Of a stretch of DNA of 64,000 nt, positions 293 through 17,060 are shown piece after piece; positions within the stretch are counted from its first letter, which is position 1, and each line of letters opens with the position of its first letter. The stretch is from NCBI GenBank assembly GCA_902779445.1, contig CACZBM010000014.1, positions 8,508 through 72,507 of the forward strand. Direction: 5' to 3'. Origin of the DNA: an uncultured Lachnospiraceae bacterium. GTDB taxonomy: Bacteria; Bacillota; Clostridia; Lachnospirales; Lachnospiraceae. The notes under the pieces were generated by a model. The model was not told the DNA's origin, searched no databases, and worked only from the letters and a program-made list of their open reading frames with translations. The translations under genes were made by a program, and so were the position numbers.

Positions 293-1840
293 TTAAAAGA
301 AAATATTTTTCCCCGTTTCAAAGTAATAGTTATTGGAGGGGATTATCTCGGATCCTTTGACCTCGAATACCTCCCAGACCACGCCGCTCTTTCCCACTGG
401 CACCTGGAATGAGGCCACAAGACCGCTCTTATTATACATCTTTACCTGTACTTCGGAAAGTGACATATCATTCGTGAGATTATTGCCTGACTTTCCGTTT
501 CTCTGATCAGTAACAAAATACTTATAATCCGTATCGCTGTCAACAGTTATTATCTGGCTCATGCTGTTTTCATACTTACCGGAATTCAGATCCACGGTAA
601 AAGGCTTTAATTCAGAGATCTTATCGGTATTGTATGAAAGGACCACTTCGTACTGGTTCTCTTTTAATTTATCCGGAGACTGTTTTGTGACATCCAGAAG
701 ATATGTCTTGGGGTCGTGCTTATTATTGCCCTCCGGAGCCATATAGGTCACTCCCGCCGGATACTCTATGGTCCTCGGCCTGATAAATACGTCATTCACC
801 TCGGACACGGCAAAATCGCCGTATTCAAATTTCATATTGTACCAGTCGGCGTTATTGACCGGAACAGTGATCTCGTAATAGCCGTCACCATTAGAAACCA
901 CACTTTTCTTATAGGCATTTGCCTCACTGGTGATCGTAACAGAGGTATTTGCAAGGGTTCCGCCGTATTCATCAGCCACGTAACCGTAAATCTTCGCTGT
1001 AGAGGGGATATCCTTAAGGGCATCATATGACACATAAGCTCTGTTTATAAGCTTCTGCTCCAGCTCGTCATATTCCTTCTGAATATCCGGATTCATATCC
1101 TTATAAGTCGCCGCTGTGACGGATTCATTTGATTCCCCGTATGTGGCATAGCATTCAGCCATGAAATCATCGGTAAAATAACACCTCTGCCCGCCGGATT
1201 TTCTTGCATCATCCGCATTGATACCGTAGAGATCGTCTAAATACCTGTATATATAGACAAGGGTTCCTTCCTGGAAATAATAACCGTTTATCTCCCTTCC
1301 GCTGCTTCCGTACTCAGTTGCCACTATCTTGTCGATCAGTCTTTCCTCGGGATCGGTGTAAACTGTGAAATCAATGGTAGCTCCGTTCCCGCTCCTGAAC
1401 ATCCTTATCGTCTTTTTCTTATCCCCGGATATCCTTTTTTCTATATCCTTGGCCACATGTTTATTAACCTCCGCGGATTCCGATCTCTTATTGGGCTCGT
1501 ACTTTATAGTGTCAAAGTCTATTTCCGGAGTAACACCGTTCGTGCGGTTGATATAAGCGACAGCTTCTTCAAATGTATCATCTATCGCTTCCTTCGGGCC
1601 ATGCTTTGCAGGGGCAGTGATCGCGTCATCTTCCCCGATCCCGTCCTCATCCTCGGGAACCTCTTCCTCTGTTGAAGGGAGGGAAATATCTCCCGTGGGT
1701 TCTGCTGAAGATGCTGCTGTATCATCCTTATTTGTGACTATTCCGTTTTTATCATTCTTTCCGCACCCTGAAATAAGGGTGATCATCATCACCAGTATAA
1801 GTATTGATCCGGTAATTCTTCCGGCAATATTGTTTTTCAT
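293..1840 (-). CDS. lipoprotein of unknown function, with a carboxypeptidase-regulatory-like beta-sandwich segment
   Basis: Signal peptide plus lipobox ...MMITLISGCGKN. GGAGG SD upstream of ATG 1840. The segment IYGYVADEYGGTLANTSVTITSE...SNGDGYYEITVP resembles CarboxypepD_reg-type folds (recollection). Confidence 0.6.
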   Translation of the reverse strand: MKNNIAGRITGSILILVMMITLISGCGKNDKNGIVTNKDDTAASSAEPTGDISLPSTEEEVPEDEDGIGEDDAITAPAKHGPKEAIDDTFEEAVAYINRTNGVTPEIDFDTIKYEPNKRSESAEVNKHVAKDIEKRISGDKKKTIRMFRSGNGATIDFTVYTDPEERLIDKIVATEYGSSGREINGYYFQEGTLVYIYRYLDDLYGINADDARKSGGQRCYFTDDFMAECYATYGESNESVTAATYKDMNPDIQKEYDELEQKLINRAYVSYDALKDIPSTAKIYGYVADEYGGTLANTSVTITSEANAYKKSVVSNGDGYYEITVPVNNADWYNMKFEYGDFAVSEVNDVFIRPRTIEYPAGVTYMAPEGNNKHDPKTYLLDVTKQSPDKLKENQYEVVLSYNTDKISELKPFTVDLNSGKYENSMSQIITVDSDTDYKYFVTDQRNGKSGNNLTNDMSLSEVQVKMYNKSGLVASFQVPVGKSGVVWEVFEVKGSEIIPSNNYYFETGKNIFF

Positions 1841-1932: not shown

Positions 1933-2856
1933 TCATAAGGAAATATTCAGTATGTCTAAGATAATCCCCGTAAGAAGTCCGCAGGAAAAGAGGATCCCGG
2001 TGATCAAAAAGTTCTTTTTTCTGTCAGAATTTACCCTGAATAATACGAGCAGACCTATCCCGGCTCCCGTAAGTAAGCCTGACATCATGGACCCGAAGCC
2101 TATGATCCCTTCCATATAGAACTCCGTTATGATCACTGAAGCCGCACAGTTGGGTATCAGACCGATAAGACTTGCAGCGAAATTGACAAAAATACCTTTA
2201 TTCGAGAGAAATGATCCTATGGTCTCTTCCCCTACAGTTTCCACTATGAAATTGATAAGGATAGATACAGCAAGGATGAAAATAAAGATATTAAATGTAT
2301 GTTTGACAGCGGGCTTTACTATCCCGTGATGATGCTTCTTAGTGTGTTCCTTTAGATCCCTGACTTCATGCATATCCTTGAATTCAGACTTTTCATCATC
2401 ACAGTGGCATTTCTCTTTAACGCAGAGACTGTGGATATCCATGGGCTTTTTCCCGGACTTCAGGAAATATCTTATGAAAGCATCCATGAGAACTCCCCAG
2501 AATACCCCGATAACAGCTTTTATCAGAAGGATCTTTAATATCCTGTCCGGTGCGAGATGCCCCGACAGAAACATAGGCAGCATTTCGTCAGATGTGGACA
2601 GAAAGATCGCCAGGAGAGTTCCTGACGTTATCACATTTCCCGCATACAGATTTGAAGCGGCCGTTGAAAAGCCGCACTGTGGAAATATTCCTATGATCCC
2701 GCCTATCACAGGTCCGAATCTTCCCGACCTTTCCACTGCCTCTGCCATTCTGCCCCCGGCATGTTCCTCCAGGTACTCCATAAAGAGATAGGTTATGAAA
2801 AGATAGGGAAGCGTCTTTACCGAATCTATGACGGCATCCAGTACTATATCAGCCAT
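1933..2856 (-). CDS. polytopic (about 10 TM) putative metal permease, ArsP_2/PF11449-like
   Basis: Two hydrophobic halves are separated by the loop CHCDDEKSEFKDMHEVRDLKEHTKKHHHG. The N-terminus FPQCGFSTAASNLYAGNVIT...STSDEMLP matches my recollection of the 'putative 10TM heavy-metal exporter' family. GGAGGAG SD. It starts 16 nt after the upstream peptide gene. Confidence 0.55.
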   Translation of the reverse strand: MADIVLDAVIDSVKTLPYLFITYLFMEYLEEHAGGRMAEAVERSGRFGPVIGGIIGIFPQCGFSTAASNLYAGNVITSGTLLAIFLSTSDEMLPMFLSGHLAPDRILKILLIKAVIGVFWGVLMDAFIRYFLKSGKKPMDIHSLCVKEKCHCDDEKSEFKDMHEVRDLKEHTKKHHHGIVKPAVKHTFNIFIFILAVSILINFIVETVGEETIGSFLSNKGIFVNFAASLIGLIPNCAASVIITEFYMEGIIGFGSMMSGLLTGAGIGLLVLFRVNSDRKKNFLITGILFSCGLLTGIILDILNISL

Positions 2857-2872
2857 TTACTCCTCCGCCTGT

Positions 2873-3121
2873 TCAGGGAGTACCGTATACACCGTTTGAA
2901 TCAACCGTGAATGTATGACCGCAGGTATGACATCTGAAATGATCCCTTTCATCACCTGCTACATTCCAGACTTCAAAATTGCCCTCATCTGTCTCTCCAC
3001 AGGAGTGACACATTATTTCTTTACCACTTGAATATCCGCTATTATTGGAAAATCCTCCGGACACCATCTCCATATCAGCGTCTGAAAGCTGTATGGATCT
3101 TTTCATATTTTCGTTATTCAT
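2873..3121 (-). CDS. 82-aa peptide: double-glycine-type leader plus Cys4 zinc-ribbon core
   Basis: AAGGAG lies 5 nt upstream of the ATG. The N-terminus MNNENMKRSIQLSDADMEMVSGG fits LSxxELxxIxGG. The core has CHSCG and CHTCGH knuckles separated by 22 residues. Confidence 0.6.
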   Translation of the reverse strand: MNNENMKRSIQLSDADMEMVSGGFSNNSGYSSGKEIMCHSCGETDEGNFEVWNVAGDERDHFRCHTCGHTFTVDSNGVYGTP

Positions 3122-3273
3122 ATGATCTCCTTTCTGTTGAGGAGCACGATCTCTTTTTGATCCTCACATAATGATATACGTACCGTATTATTAAACTGGC
3201 AGCAGATCATCAAAAGATATTCTATCATAATTATAGCAAACGACAAAATTCTTTCGTTTAATAAAAAAAGATT

Positions 3274-3444
3274 CAAACGCCAAAAGTACTGAATCACTGT
3301 TTTGATACAACGAATTGCTTCGTTGCTTTCAGCAACTCTCGCAATTCTACAATACTCGCAATCCGCTAATTTACTGCTGTTTGACGCCCAAAGTCAAATG
3401 GCTTTTTGAACAAGTTCAATCGCCATTTGGACTTTTGGCGTTTG
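3274..3444. repeat. 171-bp element bounded by perfect 14-bp inverted repeats
   Basis: caaacgccaaaagt (3274-3287) is the exact reverse complement of acttttggcgtttg (3431-3444). Internal small hairpins are caacgaa/ttcgttg, ttgct/agcaa and ttgaa/ttcaa. An imperfect local partner lies at 3385-3402. Confidence 0.5.
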
Positions 3445-3454
3445 TATCATAAAA

Positions 3455-3483
3455 TTGACAATGTTAAAAAAAGGGTCTAATAT
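3455..3483 (+). promoter_or_regulatory. sigma-A-type promoter for the MATE gene (TTGACA-17-TAATAT)
   Basis: TTGACA at 3455-3460, an exact 17-nt spacer, and TAATAT at 3478-3483. The ATG at 3493 is only 9 nt past the -10 element. Confidence 0.45.
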
Positions 3484-3492
3484 TTCCGCACT

Positions 3493-4845
3493 ATGACAAA
3501 GAGCAATACAAAAAATATGACAGAGGGTAATCCCCTTCTGCTCATCATGCAGTTTGCTTTCCCCCTGCTCCTCGGGAATCTTTTCCAGCAGACTTATAAC
3601 GTAGTGGATGCAGCCATCGTGGGCCGTATCCTGGGTGCCAATGCCCTTGCGGGAGTTGGCGCATCCAGCAGTGTGCAGTTTCTGATACTGGGTTTCTGTA
3701 TCGGAATATGTGCCGGCTTTTCAGTGCCTGTCGCACAGCGGTTCGGAGCCGGGGACACCCGGTCCCTCAGAAGATTTATCTTTCACAGCGTTATACTCAT
3801 CGTATTTCTGTCTGTAATACTGACACTCATATGCTGTCTCTTATGTAAAGGGATATTAAATATACTCCACACTCCCGGCGATATCTATTCCGATGCCTAT
3901 GCCTATCTTTTCGTGATCTTTTTAGGCATACCTTTTACCCTGTTATACAATATCACCGCCGGAGTATTAAGGGCGGTGGGTGACAGCCGTACCCCGTTTA
4001 TATTCCTTGCACTGTCTACTGCTTTCAATATCGGTCTCGATCTCTTCTGTATCATCGTACTTAAATGGGGTGTTGCGGGAGCTGCTCTTGCGACTGTGGC
4101 CTCCCAGGCTATAAGCGGGATACTGTGTCTTATCTTTATCCTGAAAAAGATGACTTTTATCCTTCCGGAAAAGGATGACTGTGTCCTTAAGCTTTCCTAC
4201 ATATTGAATCTTTTGAGTATGGGACTCCCCATGGGAATGCAGTATTCCATCACTGCAATAGGCAGTATGTTCATGCAGTCCGCCAATAATTCCCTGGGGA
4301 GCGTTTATGTTTCGGGATTCACTGCCGCGATGAAGATAAAGCAGTTCACCATGTGTCCTTTTGACGCCCTGGCTACTGCTGTTTCCACCTTTGCAGGGCA
4401 GAATTACGGCGCCGGAAATGTTAAACGCATACGTGACGGTGTAAAGATAGGTGTGATAGTCGGGATAATATACGGCATCCTGGCAGGAATAGTAAATATC
4501 TTCTTCGGCCGCACTCTTTCCCTTCTCTTTATAAGTGCGGATTCTGCCGCTATCCTTGACGCGGCTGCCAGATACTTAAGAGCCCTCGGTTTCTTCTACT
4601 GGGCTCTTGGTATACTCAATGTCTGCAGGATGTCGGTCCAGGGTCTCGGTTTTTCCGCCCTCACCATATTTTCGGGCTTTACCGAAATGGTCGCAAGGAT
4701 TCTTATGAGCGTCTTTGCCGTACCTGCATTCGGATATGCCGCCATCTGCTTTACAGACCAGAGTGCGTGGCTTTCTGCCTGTTTTTACATTGTCCCCACA
4801 TGCATTTACTGCATCAATAAGATCGATCACATACTTAATTCCTGA
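3493..4845 (+). CDS. MATE family efflux transporter
   Basis: 450 aa with about 12 TM segments. The N-terminal GNLFQQTYNVVDAAIVGR motif and overall layout are typical of MATE (NorM/DinF-like) exporters. Confidence 0.85.
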   Translation: MTKSNTKNMTEGNPLLLIMQFAFPLLLGNLFQQTYNVVDAAIVGRILGANALAGVGASSSVQFLILGFCIGICAGFSVPVAQRFGAGDTRSLRRFIFHSVILIVFLSVILTLICCLLCKGILNILHTPGDIYSDAYAYLFVIFLGIPFTLLYNITAGVLRAVGDSRTPFIFLALSTAFNIGLDLFCIIVLKWGVAGAALATVASQAISGILCLIFILKKMTFILPEKDDCVLKLSYILNLLSMGLPMGMQYSITAIGSMFMQSANNSLGSVYVSGFTAAMKIKQFTMCPFDALATAVSTFAGQNYGAGNVKRIRDGVKIGVIVGIIYGILAGIVNIFFGRTLSLLFISADSAAILDAAARYLRALGFFYWALGILNVCRMSVQGLGFSALTIFSGFTEMVARILMSVFAVPAFGYAAICFTDQSAWLSACFYIVPTCIYCINKIDHILNS

Positions 4846-7072: not shown

Positions 7073-9130
7073 TTACGCTACTTCAAGCTTATAGGTAAAG
7101 GTCTTATTTGATCCATCAATAGTCTTGAATTTGATGGTATACTTACCGGGATTATTTAGAATAGCCTTGACGGGCCTGCCCTTTTTATTGTTAACAAAGG
7201 TGACATTTCCTTTGCTGATATCTTTTTTACTAAAGGTCACACTATACTTAAAAGCGCTATCGGCACTATACCAGACAGGTTCTGTAGTATACTTCTTATC
7301 AAAGAACAGGCATGCATTTGAATTTAAATTAGAATTAGGAGATATAAGATCCACTTCTGTTCCGCATTTTACTGCTGAATCAAATTTTATTGTGCTCTTT
7401 ATCTTGAGTTTGTATCCACCTTTTTTGTTCGATACAGTAGTGTAAGATCCAGCAGCCACAAGAGGTTTTGTGATGGTATATTTACATTGGAGAGTATCTC
7501 CTTCGATCTCTGCTGTTATTGTCACTTCCGAACCTATGACAGCCTTCTTATCACACTTAACCACGCCATTCTTTACGGTAACGCTTGAGGATGAGCTGGT
7601 CCACTTTGCATCCTTTAAGGCTTTTTTGAGTTCTTTAGTATTGGTATTACCCTTCGGATCTCCGATCTTAAGCTTTACTTTCTTTCCCTGGGCAATATCC
7701 CCCCCAAGGATCGCACCGTAATTTCCGGCTTCATCCACCAGAGTATAGGTCTTTGAAAAGGATTTCGGTATTTTTTCCACGGCTTTATCAGCCTGAACAA
7801 GACCTGTAATACTGTGGTCTTGATAAGAATATTCTATTCCGTCAGTGGTATTTAAGATCGCATCCGTAACATAATCCACGGCGTAACTTTTTCCCATATC
7901 AAGAAGATCCGGATTAACGGAGTAACATAATGCGGCAACACCTGCCACAATTGGGGTTGCCATGGAGGTTCCTTTAATACAGCCGTAAGCATTCTGATTC
8001 GATGTGCTACCCGTAATACTACCTGGAATACCAGGAAGATAGGTAGCTGTAATAGCTGTTCCCGGTGCTGCAATATCAACCCAGTCGCCGTAGTTTGAGT
8101 AATCAGCAAGATTGTCATTCTTATCCGTAGCTGCAACGGCTAATACATGATCGTAAGCGGCAGGATACGCCTTAGTAGATGTATTATCATTACCTGATGC
8201 TGCGACGGTCATTATCCCTCTATCATAGGCTTCATTTATAAGCTGCTGGAAACTGCTGGAATAACGGGGGCCACCGAGGCTCATGCTAATGACATTGACA
8301 TTTTTTTCCATTGCTATGGAAAAAGCCTCTTCTACTGCAGACATGGAAAATCCGCTGCTTGTGTTAAACGCTTTCACGGAGTAGATCTCTGCATCCGGAG
8401 CGACCCCGAAACCTCCAAGGGAATTTCCTTTTTTTTCATGGATTATGCCGGTGCAGTGTATGCCATGTCCCACAGTTGTATCTGTACCTGATGAAAAAGA
8501 GTCTATGTAGAGGGAATGCTCATCATCAAAGGCGGAATCCTCGTGATCCGGGGTACATCCCGAATCAATGACCGCGATCTTTGCACCCTCTCCGGTTGTG
8601 GTCTCATGAGCTTTAAGGGTATTTATCTTGTCATGAAAGTACTGGTAATGTGGATCGGCACTATTTGCGTAAGGGTCATTTGTCAGTGTGCTGTCCAAAT
8701 GACCCATGGAAAAAATATTAGAGTCACTCACACTGACATCACTTTTTACATCCATCGTTTGATATATATAATTGGGATTGACTGGAACCTCCGGAGAACC
8801 ACCATGAGCAGCTGCCATAAAGGCATCAACAGTGCTTTCCTTAAACTGTACCACGGCTATCCTGTGGTTATAGCTCTTTAAGGTTCCGTTATACTGTGCA
8901 GCGATCCTTTCTGCATCTTCTCTTGTATCTGCGATAAAGACACCTTCTTTATCCACATAATCGGTACCGGGCTCAAGGGAATCAAGCTCTGCGGCAACTG
9001 ATTCAAGCTCTGCGGCAACTGAATCATCGAATAAAGCCGTTCCTTCTTCCGCTGATACCGGCATTGAAAATGTAACTGTCAGGGCTGCGGCCAGAAACAG
9101 CGACAGCAGTTTTTTACTGTGTTTTTTCAT
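7073..9130 (-). CDS. secreted S8 (subtilisin-family) serine peptidase with C-terminal Ig-like beta repeats
   Basis: Triad motifs occur in subtilase order: IAVIDSGC (Asp), HGIHCTG (His), GTSMATPIVAG (Ser). Signal peptide MKKHSKKLLSLFLAAALTVTFSMPVSA. I moved the start to ATG 9130 (AAAGGAG upstream), because the ORF-track start at 9196 lies in the predicted promoter. Confidence 0.85.
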   Translation of the reverse strand: MKKHSKKLLSLFLAAALTVTFSMPVSAEEGTALFDDSVAAELESVAAELDSLEPGTDYVDKEGVFIADTREDAERIAAQYNGTLKSYNHRIAVVQFKESTVDAFMAAAHGGSPEVPVNPNYIYQTMDVKSDVSVSDSNIFSMGHLDSTLTNDPYANSADPHYQYFHDKINTLKAHETTTGEGAKIAVIDSGCTPDHEDSAFDDEHSLYIDSFSSGTDTTVGHGIHCTGIIHEKKGNSLGGFGVAPDAEIYSVKAFNTSSGFSMSAVEEAFSIAMEKNVNVISMSLGGPRYSSSFQQLINEAYDRGIMTVAASGNDNTSTKAYPAAYDHVLAVAATDKNDNLADYSNYGDWVDIAAPGTAITATYLPGIPGSITGSTSNQNAYGCIKGTSMATPIVAGVAALCYSVNPDLLDMGKSYAVDYVTDAILNTTDGIEYSYQDHSITGLVQADKAVEKIPKSFSKTYTLVDEAGNYGAILGGDIAQGKKVKLKIGDPKGNTNTKELKKALKDAKWTSSSSSVTVKNGVVKCDKKAVIGSEVTITAEIEGDTLQCKYTITKPLVAAGSYTTVSNKKGGYKLKIKSTIKFDSAVKCGTEVDLISPNSNLNSNACLFFDKKYTTEPVWYSADSAFKYSVTFSKKDISKGNVTFVNNKKGRPVKAILNNPGKYTIKFKTIDGSNKTFTYKLEVA
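8982..9023. repeat. 2 x 21-bp in-frame tandem duplication inside the S8 peptidase pro-region
   Basis: tcaagctctgcggcaactgat is followed by tcaagctctgcggcaactgaa. This encodes the duplicated heptad VAAELES/VAAELDS. Confidence 0.8.
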
Positions 9131-9166
9131 TAATATTACTCCTTTGATTCCAAGTATATTTGATTT

Positions 9167-9196
9167 ATTATAATCCCTTTCGCTTCTGCTTTTCAA
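9167..9196 (-). promoter_or_regulatory. candidate promoter of the S8 peptidase gene (TTGAAA-18-TATAAT)
   Basis: On the minus strand, TTGAAA (9196-9191), an 18-nt spacer, then TATAAT (9172-9167). Confidence 0.4.
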
Positions 9197-15458: not shown

Positions 15459-17060
15459 TTACACCCCACTTATCATCAATGTACCAAATGATTCCGAGGA
15501 TGCTTTGGCAGGAAGTATGCCTGCCACCTTCCCGCCGGAAATTATCGCAATACGGTCACAGGTAGATCTGAGCTCGGCAAGCTCTGATGATATCATTACT
15601 ACTGTGACTCCGCTTTCCCTGTTAAAGCGCTTAAGCGCATCAAGGACCAGTGCTTTCGCTCCCACGTCGATACCTCGTGTGGGCTCAGACACGAATAAGA
15701 AACTGGGTTCCAGCGCGAACGCTTTTGCAAGACAGATCTTCTGCTGGTTACCACCTGAAAGCTCTTTTGCCTTCTGCGTTGTACTCGTGCACTTGATCTG
15801 AAGCTCATCTATATATTTCTCGGTGATCTTTCTGATCTCCTTGTCATCACGCCACTTGATAAGGCCACCCAGATACTTCTTCAGGTATTTATCCTGTACC
15901 TGCATGGCAGGGAAAGACACATTCCATTCCAAAGTCTCATCCAGGAGCAGTCCCACTCCTCTTCTGTCCTCCGACACAAAGGCAAGGGATGCATCCAGAC
16001 ACTTTCTCGGGGAATTAAGTGGTATCTCCTGACCGTTGAAAACAACCTTTCCTCCGGCCTGATAAAGACCCATGATACCGTTCGGAATACCGAGCTTACC
16101 CTGTCCGGCAAGCCCTCCGATACCGAGGATCTCTCCCTTTCTGACGTCGAGATTGACATCACGAACAGTTTCTCCCGGCATATCCACCCAGAGATTCTTT
16201 ATGGACATGATAGTCTCGAAGTCGTCTTTGTCCTGCTCCTTCACAATTTCTCTAAGGTCACTGGGAGTATCGGATCCCTTCACTTCCCTTCCCACCATAA
16301 GATGGGTTATCTCAGCTTCTGATGTGTTTTTGGCAGCAAGATCACTTATTAAAAGGCCGTCACGCATTACGACAACCCTGTTACAAACTTCCAGTATTTC
16401 ATGAAGTCTGTGTGTGATAAAGATCACGGCGATGCCGCGTTTGGACATTCCCCTGATGGATTCGAGAAGCGCTTCAGCTTCTTTTTCCGTAAGAACAGCC
16501 GTAGGCTCATCCAGAATAAGTATCTTCAGCTGCTTTTTTGACAGCTCCCTGGCTATCTCGGTAAACTGCTTATGTCCCACAGGCATATCGCTTATAAGCA
16601 TATCCTGTTCTATATTAACGCCCATCTGTTGTATAGCTTCACGGGCGCGATTGTCCATATCCTTGCGGTCAAGCGTATCCATTCTGTCGCTGAACAACTG
16701 TGACAGCACGCTTTTCTTTTTTGATTCCCTGTTGAGCAAAATATTTTCTGTGGCAGTAAATCCGGGTATCAGTGAAAACTCCTGATGAACCATCCCAATA
16801 CCTGATGCAATGGCATCAAAGGGTGATTCGAAATTCACTTTTTCGGAATTAATGATGATATCTCCGCCGTAACCACCTGTTTCCCTGATGACATCCGCAC
16901 CGAAGAGGATCTTCATCAGAGTGGATTTTCCTGCACCGTTTTCTCCTACAAGACCGATCACTTCCCCCTCTTCAAGAGTTAAGTTTATATCTGTAAGAAC
17001 CTGATTCCCGAAAAAATCCTTTTTTATATTTCGCATTTCAAGAAGAGGTGCTTTTTCCAT
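15459..17060 (-). CDS. ABC transporter ATP-binding protein with two fused NBDs
   Basis: Walker A GENGAGKST. A second-NBD signature LSGGNQQK. ILILDEPT and FVSEPTRGIDV. At 533 aa it matches RbsA/MglA-type duplicated ATPases. Confidence 0.9.
   Translation of the reverse strand: MEKAPLLEMRNIKKDFFGNQVLTDINLTLEEGEVIGLVGENGAGKSTLMKILFGADVIRETGGYGGDIIINSEKVNFESPFDAIASGIGMVHQEFSLIPGFTATENILLNRESKKKSVLSQLFSDRMDTLDRKDMDNRAREAIQQMGVNIEQDMLISDMPVGHKQFTEIARELSKKQLKILILDEPTAVLTEKEAEALLESIRGMSKRGIAVIFITHRLHEILEVCNRVVVMRDGLLISDLAAKNTSEAEITHLMVGREVKGSDTPSDLREIVKEQDKDDFETIMSIKNLWVDMPGETVRDVNLDVRKGEILGIGGLAGQGKLGIPNGIMGLYQAGGKVVFNGQEIPLNSPRKCLDASLAFVSEDRRGVGLLLDETLEWNVSFPAMQVQDKYLKKYLGGLIKWRDDKEIRKITEKYIDELQIKCTSTTQKAKELSGGNQQKICLAKAFALEPSFLFVSEPTRGIDVGAKALVLDALKRFNRESGVTVVMISSELAELRSTCDRIAIISGGKVAGILPAKASSESFGTLMISGV

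Follow-up and report, generated by a model that had tools for sequence, protein, structure and literature searches.

A peptide family of rumen-type Lachnospiraceae joins a double-glycine leader to a zinc-ribbon-like Cys4 core and adjoins an ArsP-family permease in one lineage

Introduction

An uncultured Lachnospiraceae bacterium (assembly GCA_902779445.1, contig CACZBM010000014.1) carries a small gene for a peptide with a double-glycine (GG) leader and a four-cysteine (Cys4) core, followed at once by a gene for an ArsP-family permease. We analyzed 64,000 nucleotides of this contig (positions 8,508 to 72,507 of the forward strand), hereafter the window, and all positions below are those of the window unless a locus is named. 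The locus raises the question of whether the two genes form a dedicated metal system, a metal-binding peptide with its metal permease, as the original prediction proposed, or whether the peptide belongs with the substrates of ATP-binding cassette (ABC) transporters that contain a peptidase (PCATs). We hold the second reading to be the probable one, with considerable room for doubt: the window gene would be an orphan that codes for the precursor of a peptide processed by a PCAT and exported, and its pairing with the permease a lineage-specific operon accident or adaptation. Handles such as L030 and P0001 are ours.

Results

A peptide family of rumen-type Lachnospiraceae

Read on the minus strand, the peptide open reading frame (ORF) extends from an ATG at 3121 to a stop codon at 2875..2873, and its product begins with MNNENMKRSIQLSDADMEMVSGG (residues 1-23), followed by 59 residues. 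The sequence statements of the original prediction (the ORF, its AAGGAG, the CxxC spacing, the 16-nt gap, the GGAGGAG and the 307-aa permease) were all confirmed on this strand. An exhaustive hidden Markov model (HMM) search over 1.84 billion representative proteins (E <= 1e-3) returned 58 relatives, nearly all of 60-134 aa and aligned over leader plus core. A word-indexed protein search gave 3 matches with the single peptide (74-99% identity) and 12 with a profile; the close homologues of the window peptide are P0001-P0003, L030 and L055/L056. All conservation counts below were taken from an alignment of 52 members with 26-46% identity to the window peptide.

The gene is genuine and evolves under selection. 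Between the window and L001, codons 35-82 differ by 16 synonymous and 6 non-synonymous changes, and the linker codons 25-34 by 1 synonymous and 4 non-synonymous changes, a pattern that points to purifying selection on the scaffold and to relaxed or diversifying selection on the linker. The earlier view of the ORF as a genuine gene, with a good ribosome-binding site, is borne out.

GTDB genomes searched with the alignment of close homologues yielded no relatives. We also constructed a degenerate DNA pattern (V-[SATP]-G-G-[FY]-x4-G-[YWC]-x2-G-x2-[IVM]-x-C-x2-C) and ran it against 185,579 species genomes, which gave 15 loci, 13 of them confirmed by HMM. Twelve of the confirmed loci lie in metagenome-assembled genomes (MAGs) of rumen Lachnospiraceae and one in a MAG labelled 'uncultured bacterium'; the remaining 2 of the 15, in unrelated genera, were discarded as chance matches. 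In metagenomes the pattern matched 20 contigs, all 20 confirmed and of rumen type, and in IMG/VR it had no match. A phage or plasmid origin was rejected, with no tblastn match in 50,697 phage and 72,556 plasmid records and none in IMG/VR. The scans thus found the family only in rumen-type Lachnospiraceae. Full-text literature searches returned no description of GG-leader zinc-ribbon peptides, which also go unmentioned in a 2026 survey of rumen bacteriocins. The family, which pairs a GG leader with a zinc-ribbon-like Cys4 core, is previously undescribed.

The leader follows the double-glycine consensus

The window leader carries L12 (-12), D16 (-8), M17 (-7), V20 (-4), G22 (-2) and G23 (-1), and the same positions are conserved across the family. 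G-2 and G-1 are invariant (52/52), position -12 is L/I/V/M and position -7 is L/M/I/V in every member, position -4 is V/I in 51 of the 52, and position -8 is E/D/Q in 41. The homologues therefore keep the GG motif together with the conserved -12, -7 and -4 positions, and the leader proposed in the original prediction is a genuine one. Both the window leader and the family leader match the PCAT consensus L(-12)xxxE(-8)L(-7)xxxxG(-2)G(-1), described for CtA and other substrates (PMC6959990). When a GG-leader regular expression was run against the six-frame translation of the 64 kb, the peptide ORF was the single match. The leader varies in length from 15 to 64 residues across the family; the distance between GG and the first Cys hardly changes, and neither does the length of the core (median 61 aa).

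AlphaFold2, run with the family alignment, gave a mean predicted local distance difference test (pLDDT) score of 72.5, with residues 1-3 and 11-21 below 50. The model leaves residues 1-21 disordered, and the leader is therefore not part of the predicted fold; residues 1-23 were not placed inside the folded domain, the outcome by which the original prediction would have been refuted. The model has a short helix at residues 14-17, within the -10 to -4 stretch, which in the PCAT1-CtA complex forms a helix on the C39 domain.

The core is predicted to be a zinc-ribbon-type mini-protein

The core holds two CxxC knuckles, CHSCG (C38/C41) and CHTCGH (C64/C67), with 22 residues between C41 and C64. C38, C41 and C64 are invariant in the 52 members and C67 is present in 50, within the family consensus CPxCG...CxxCG.F.VD..G; the Cys4 zinc-ribbon-type signature proposed earlier is thus a conserved family trait. 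The same does not hold for the extra His residues that had been noted at the site: they are specific to the window clade, and position 39, for example, is Pro in 45 of the 52 members. AlphaFold2 predicted residues 24-80 at pLDDT 80-89 with three strands (49-53, 59-64 and 70-74), and the conserved residues just after the GG (F/Y-x-E-x-x-G-Y) are predicted to pack on this core.

The family profile matched the zinc ribbons of TFIIS, Rpb9 and RPC10 among PDB sequences at E = 9e-7 to 1e-4. The best-scoring matches in this search, tandem C2H2 fingers, were rejected as spacing artefacts, and no match to CtA or to any bacteriocin was obtained. No Pfam or NCBIfam model covers any of the relatives, and none reached its cut-off with the window peptide, which gave weak zinc-ribbon matches and a weak match of the leader alone to a bacteriocin model. 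From the signature and the predicted topology, the core would be a zinc-ribbon-type Cys4 mini-protein with predicted Zn binding.

Family members lie beside C39 exporters and in several copies

Some relatives are linked to PCATs. In L009/L010 the gene order is response regulator, family gene, HlyD-type fragment, TIGR03796, TIGR03797, ECF (extracytoplasmic function) sigma factor and two more family paralogues; the TIGR03796 and TIGR03797 products score 915.8 bits (cut-off 853.3) and 748.7 bits (cut-off 709.4). In L016 the family gene is divergent from a TIGR03796/TIGR03797 pair. Two family copies each occur in L014/L047 and in L053, and the MAG RUI362 has two dispersed copies on different contigs. 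The premise that this type of peptide travels without C39 exporters consequently has to be given up, as distant relatives adjoin the NHLP-type C39 pair, often with two or three copies. The family is thus PCAT-linked and multi-copy, and most of its members are dispersed orphans.

A Pfam census covered the 126 ORFs that lie no more than 3 kb from a family gene. ABC_tran and Response_reg were each matched by 7 ORFs, ABC_membrane and HATPase_c by 5 each, EamA by 4, and Peptidase_C39 and sigma-70 by 2 each. No recurrent maturase family was found among the 126 neighbours, and the 25 listed families, which cover every family matched by at least two neighbours, do not include Radical_SAM.

The window itself is different, and here the earlier statement that no C39/ABC exporter lies within the 64 kb stands. 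In tblastn searches with two PCATs the sole match in the window was the ATPase domain of ORF 15459..17060, part of an ABC importer with a DUF3798 binding protein and two permeases of the BPD_transp_2 type, and isolated C39 domains gave a best E of 2.7.

Three further observations were made at family loci. The C39 ABC exporter of L016 (3169-5359, minus strand) is split over three frames (pieces 15-285, 287-519 and 502-725) and is either a decaying pseudogene or an error of MAG assembly. L036 (2212-3173, minus strand) and L024 (1592-2184, directly 3' of an ECF sigma gene) contain tandem small ORFs with LSDxELxxVSGG-type leaders and unrelated cores, some Cys-rich; these arrays may be further unannotated GG-leader peptide families of rumen Lachnospiraceae. 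Four loci have an EamA/DMT-type exporter (about 320 aa) directly beside a family gene: it is divergent in L018 (536-1495) and L024 (2879-3841) and lies co-directionally upstream in L020 (1673-2656) and L046 (418-1398).

The peptide and permease genes are probably co-transcribed

The permease ATG lies at 2856, 16 nt from the end of the peptide ORF, and no terminator-like site was found between the two ORFs. Because of the short gap and the missing terminator, peptide and permease are probably carried on a single mRNA. Upstream, a sigma-70-like site is the putative promoter; in the consensus scan it matches 9 of 12 consensus positions plus the TG extension. The orthologous spacers of L030, L001 and L031 keep this segment, and promoter and 5' untranslated region can be aligned across the syntenic loci described below. 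Since these parts are alignable while the L031 peptide is only 35% identical, the peptide coding part either diverged very fast or was replaced in place. No metal riboswitch or metal-sensing leader was found upstream of the operon, and no metal regulator at the locus.

The spacer between the MATE gene and the peptide promoter contains a copy of the Clostridiales-1 RNA (RF01699, 79.3 bits, gathering score 48; Rfam match at 3303-3449, minus strand). By alignment with the orthologous spacers, the copy is an insertion of about 205 nt in the window (in the stretch 3258-3480) that is absent from the L030, L001 and L031 spacers; in the near-identical contig L055 the spacer is about as long as in the window. 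The insertion is flanked by an 18-nt inverted repeat (3270-3287 / 3431-3448, 94% complementary) and by a 16-nt direct repeat (3262-3277 / 3465-3480, spaced 203 nt), and a promoter-like TTGTCA..ATGATACAA segment stands on both sides of it. Judged by these features, the copy looks like a mobile RNA motif, similar to a miniature inverted-repeat transposable element or of another mobile kind. It was the only RNA that the search for a riboswitch or metal-sensing leader found upstream of the operon.

The link to the permease is confined to one lineage

Over residues 11-297 of its 307, the permease matched NF037962 ('arsenic efflux protein') with 326.7 bits (cut-off 100); it also matched PF11449, the family suggested for it earlier, with 63.9 bits (cut-off 32.5). 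A Kyte-Doolittle scan gave approximately 4+4 hydrophobic segments around a central hydrophilic loop, and a 4+4 topology has been described for the ArsP family (PMC7176098). The permease is thus polytopic with a central loop, as had been stated, but the ten transmembrane segments ascribed to it are only part of the Pfam family name. The His-rich central loop CHCDDEKSEFKDMHEVRDLKEHTKKHHHG occupies residues 150-178. PQCGFS, IPNCAAS and CxxxxCHC are invariant in 13 permease orthologues down to 47% identity, and the Cys motifs and the His-rich loop are kept with or without an adjacent peptide. PQCGFS and IPNCAAS are pseudo-symmetric motifs, and the length of the His-rich loop is very variable across the family. 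Public names for the ArsP_2/NF037962 branch conflict ('arsenic efflux protein' versus 'putative manganese transporter'), and the only characterized member of the ArsP family is C. jejuni ArsP, of the PF03773 branch (PMC7176098). Metal or arsenical efflux by the window permease is a family-based prediction.

In a dedicated metal system, the Cys4/His peptide would bind a thiophilic metal (Zn, Cu, As) and work with the ArsP-family permease; the peptide might be a metallochaperone or a metallophore; alternatively, the permease might charge it with metal or shield its producer. Observations from one syntenic clade favor such a system. The window, L001, L055/L056, L030 and L031/L032 have in common the gene order MATE / peptide / ArsP_2 / 515-aa lipoprotein / polysaccharide deacetylase, with short peptide-permease spacing and no terminator. 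In L030 the permease is 90%, the peptide 78% and the flanking genes 89-93% identical to those of the window. In L031/L032 the permease (80%), the MATE protein (85%) and the lipoprotein (84%) remain similar, and the peptide, of 72 aa, is 35% identical; it keeps the GG leader and the Cys4 site and has lost most His residues. The invariant permease motifs and the His-rich loop also fit a metal system, as do two neighborhoods elsewhere in the family: the EamA exporters, which adjoin family members in four loci and two arrangements, and an SO_0444-like, Cu/Zn-efflux-type ArsP_1 permease 1.2 kb from the family member of L023. A recurrent association of peptide and permease across the EamA and L023 loci is conceivable.

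The wider distribution argues otherwise. Three permease orthologues have no peptide: P0007 (80% identity) stands in another context and lacks the 515-aa lipoprotein gene, P0011 (68%) has a tRNA upstream, and in P0015 (65%) an ABC importer abuts the permease. No ArsP_2 gene was found at about 40 other family loci. In addition, even the L031 copy, which is syntenic, does not conserve the His residues of the window peptide; an invariant GG leader, together with relatives linked to PCATs, indicates export by another machine; and neither a metal riboswitch nor a metal regulator accompanies the locus. The reading as metal peptide plus metal permease is thus weakly supported, and we regard a dedicated system of this kind as unlikely.

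The permease link is patchy. P0011 and P0015 keep the downstream lipoprotein synteny, and the 515-aa lipoprotein gene follows the permease in L005-7, L030, L031 and L033-34, whether the peptide is present or not; the region downstream of the permease is a conserved chromosomal backbone. Downstream synteny is the same in these peptide-less orthologues; the permease is thus resident, and in one lineage the peptide was added. What had been described as a tight two-gene operon holds for the 16-nt gap and the missing terminator, but the pairing is lineage-restricted: peptide homologues stay adjacent to this permease family in one syntenic clade and not at the other loci, and adjacency to the permease is thus a trait of one lineage, not of the family. 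Within the syntenic clade, a lineage-specific functional link is still conceivable.

Features of the window are collected in Table 1. The lipoprotein gene, whose CarboxypepD_reg match (30.7 bits) is just under the Pfam cut-off of 32.3, may be co-transcribed. Behind it lies the polysaccharide deacetylase gene, then, in the longer contigs L005, L031 and L033, an AA_kinase (pyrH-like) gene, and next an RRF-family (frr-like) gene in L005 and L031. The divergent MATE neighbor also occurs in L001, L030, L031/L032 and L055. MATE pumps move small molecules, and the gene was set aside as a candidate exporter of the peptide; its matches to models of MATE proteins associated with peptides that are made on ribosomes and modified after translation (RiPPs) are far below cut-off. 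A secreted-looking subtilase of 707 aa (Peptidase_S8, 161.9 bits; 7073-9196, minus strand), considered as a candidate leader protease, is encoded 4 kb away from the peptide; the MATE gene, which runs in the opposite direction, and two further genes stand between it and the peptide operon.

Table 1 Coordinates of the peptide locus and its flanking features in the window
Feature	Position	Strand	Basis or remark
Whole precursor ORF, 82 aa, stop included	2873..3121	minus	Sequence reading and homologues
Double-glycine leader, residues 1-23	3053..3121	minus	Conserved in 52 aligned relatives
Predicted cargo, 59 aa, 6.5 kDa, pI 4.8	2876..3052	minus	Zinc-ribbon-like Cys4: C38, C41, C64, C67
Peptide Shine-Dalgarno AAGGAG	3127..3132	minus	5 nt before ATG; kept in L030 and L001
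Promoter-like site TTGTCG, 16-nt spacer, TG-extended TAGAAT	3219..3246	minus	Upstream of peptide gene; consensus scan
Permease Shine-Dalgarno GGAGGAG	2860..2866	minus	Inside 16-nt gap between peptide stop and permease ATG
ArsP-family permease, 307 aa	1933..2856	minus	PF11449 (ArsP_2) and NF037962
Lipoprotein-like gene, 515 aa, CarboxypepD_reg-like domain	293..1840	minus	Downstream of permease
MATE efflux gene, divergent	3493..4845	plus	PF01554, 166 bits; bounds spacer with peptide gene

Discussion

Export by a PCAT would proceed as follows. Transcription from the sigma-70-like promoter (3246..3219) would yield an mRNA with peptide and permease. Residues 12-23 of the leader would dock on the C39 domain of a PCAT, a part that in relatives would be played by the NHLP-type TIGR03796/TIGR03797 pair; the PCAT for the window copy would have to be encoded outside the 64 kb. 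A cut after Gly23 would then allow the 59-aa acidic cargo to be translocated, by analogy with PCAT1 and CtA: in PCAT1 a cavity of about 15,000 Å3 accommodates the cargo, whose volume is about 9,000 Å3, and the leader alone determines specificity (PMC6959990). The cargo would take up a zinc-ribbon-type fold cross-braced by C38, C41, C64 and C67, for which Zn(II) seems a likelier brace than two disulfides in the reducing rumen. Outside the cell it would most likely act in interbacterial competition or signalling, a role suggested by the fast divergence of the non-scaffold positions, the multi-copy loci and the two-component and ECF-sigma neighbors.

Several observations weigh against export by a PCAT. 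No PCAT is encoded in the 64 kb, and export of the window copy is thus a prediction; most family loci, seen in 8-kb views, likewise have none, and no immunity gene was recognised. The curated GG-leader and bacteriocin HMMs (e.g. TIGR01847, TIGR03949, NF038167), to which the original prediction had looked, all remained below cut-off: NF038167 scored 16 bits (cut-off 32) for the window peptide, and 2-3 of the 52 members gave sub-threshold matches with E of 3e-4 to 4e-3. Foldseek against the PDB gave nothing significant (best E = 0.8), which leaves the sequence signature and the predicted topology as the grounds for the zinc-ribbon assignment. Most cores are anionic (family median net charge -3; about -6 for the window core by hand count and -7 computed for P0001, its 99% identical homologue), and classical class II bacteriocins are cationic. 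If a Zn-bound domain folded in the cytoplasm, its transport would require either that it fit into the cavity of the transporter or that it be unfolded. Lastly, the peptide-permease spacing stays at 16-35 nt across the syntenic clade, an adjacency that outlasts the strong divergence of the peptide and hints at more than accident.

PCAT export and the permease could also be parts of one system. The family would then be the first example of secreted zinc-ribbon peptides, mini-proteins that strict anaerobes of the reducing rumen export by PCATs and brace with Zn(II) in place of disulfides, and in the window lineage the peptide would be functionally wired to the co-transcribed ArsP-type permease for metal delivery or for protection of the producer. 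We consider this combination improbable, more so than the dedicated metal system.

The product might instead be a small intracellular zinc-ribbon protein, a regulator or adaptor in which the GG is a conserved linker. Zinc ribbons are almost always cytoplasmic, the only relatives with solved structures are the TFIIS/Rpb9-type ribbons, most family loci have no exporter nearby, and the conserved residues after the GG are predicted to pack on the core, all of which would suit such a protein. It would, however, leave much unaccounted for: conservation extends to the entire leader consensus and not only to the GG, the leader is predicted to be disordered, its length ranges widely while the GG-to-Cys spacing and the core length stay near constant, three paralogues surround the NHLP-type C39 pair in L009, and unrelated GG-leader ORFs stand in tandem with family members in L024 and L036. 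An intracellular role is thus very improbable.

Least probable of all is a RiPP precursor whose Cys residues are cross-linked by a maturase encoded elsewhere (as sactipeptide- or ranthipeptide-like thioethers or similar) and are not Zn ligands: its occurrence in Clostridia with a GG leader before a Cys-rich core, weak sub-threshold matches to the TIGR04165 (Cys-rich peptide), TIGR04149 and XyeA models, and an exporter type first described with NHLP/Nif11 RiPPs would agree with it, but no radical-SAM or other maturase recurs beside family genes, CxxxCxxC occurs in just 1 of the 126 neighbors and there in an atypical C-terminal position, and the CPxCG/CxxCG knuckles with the confident beta-sheet prediction fit a metal-braced fold.

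If the peptides are exported as we favor, PCAT substrates would extend to a zinc-ribbon-type mini-protein, a fold regarded as intracellular, and rumen Lachnospiraceae would possess lineage-restricted, fast-diversifying candidate effectors or signals between bacteria. Genome mining with current Pfam and NCBIfam models does not see these precursors, most of which lie far from any exporter, so that bacteriocin finders that depend on gene clusters will miss them. The pairing of peptide and permease also offers a testable case of whether orphan GG peptides gain operon partners with functional consequences.

Compared with known systems, the peptide is closest in its leader to the GG-leader substrates of PCATs (class II bacteriocins, ComC/BlpC and CtA), with which it shares the consensus L(-12)..E(-8)L(-7)..V(-4).GG. 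Its 23 + 59 aa are similar to CtA, the C. thermocellum PCAT1 substrate, with its leader of 24 residues and cargo of 66 (PMC6959990). Relatives likewise lie beside C39 exporters, two-component regulators and ECF sigma genes, often in several copies. The differences are in the cargo, an acidic Cys4 mini-protein and not of the cationic, amphipathic or GxxxG type, and in the genomic setting, as the window copy and most relatives are orphans with no recognisable immunity gene and with leaders that the curated HMMs do not reach. The NHLP/Nif11 RiPP systems (TIGR03796/TIGR03797/TIGR03794) have the same exporter pair that flanks L009 and L016, together with the HlyD-like fragment. In contrast to theirs, the family leader is short and related neither to nitrile hydratase nor to Nif11 (no NHLP/Nif11 model matched the 52 members), the window has no export genes, and no cyclodehydratase, LanM or radical-SAM maturase occurs at any family locus.

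Methanobactins and bufferins, small exported Cys peptides beside metal transport genes, resemble the metal system proposed in the original prediction, but they need maturases (MbnBC, MNIO/DUF692) and other export signals, and no such genes occur at the window or related loci. With the ArsP family (TC 2.A.119; PF03773/PF11449) the window permease shares the 4+4 layout, the central loop and the paired Cys motifs. No ars operon is present in the window, and to our knowledge no ArsP member works with a peptide. In its core the family resembles the TFIIS/Rpb9/RPC10 ribbons and the rubredoxin-type knuckles, with two CxxC knuckles and three predicted strands; unlike the family, known zinc ribbons are intracellular modules that bind nucleic acid or protein and have no export leader. 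The paradigm of GG leaders and PCATs is thus known, and what is new is the type of cargo and the family that carries it.

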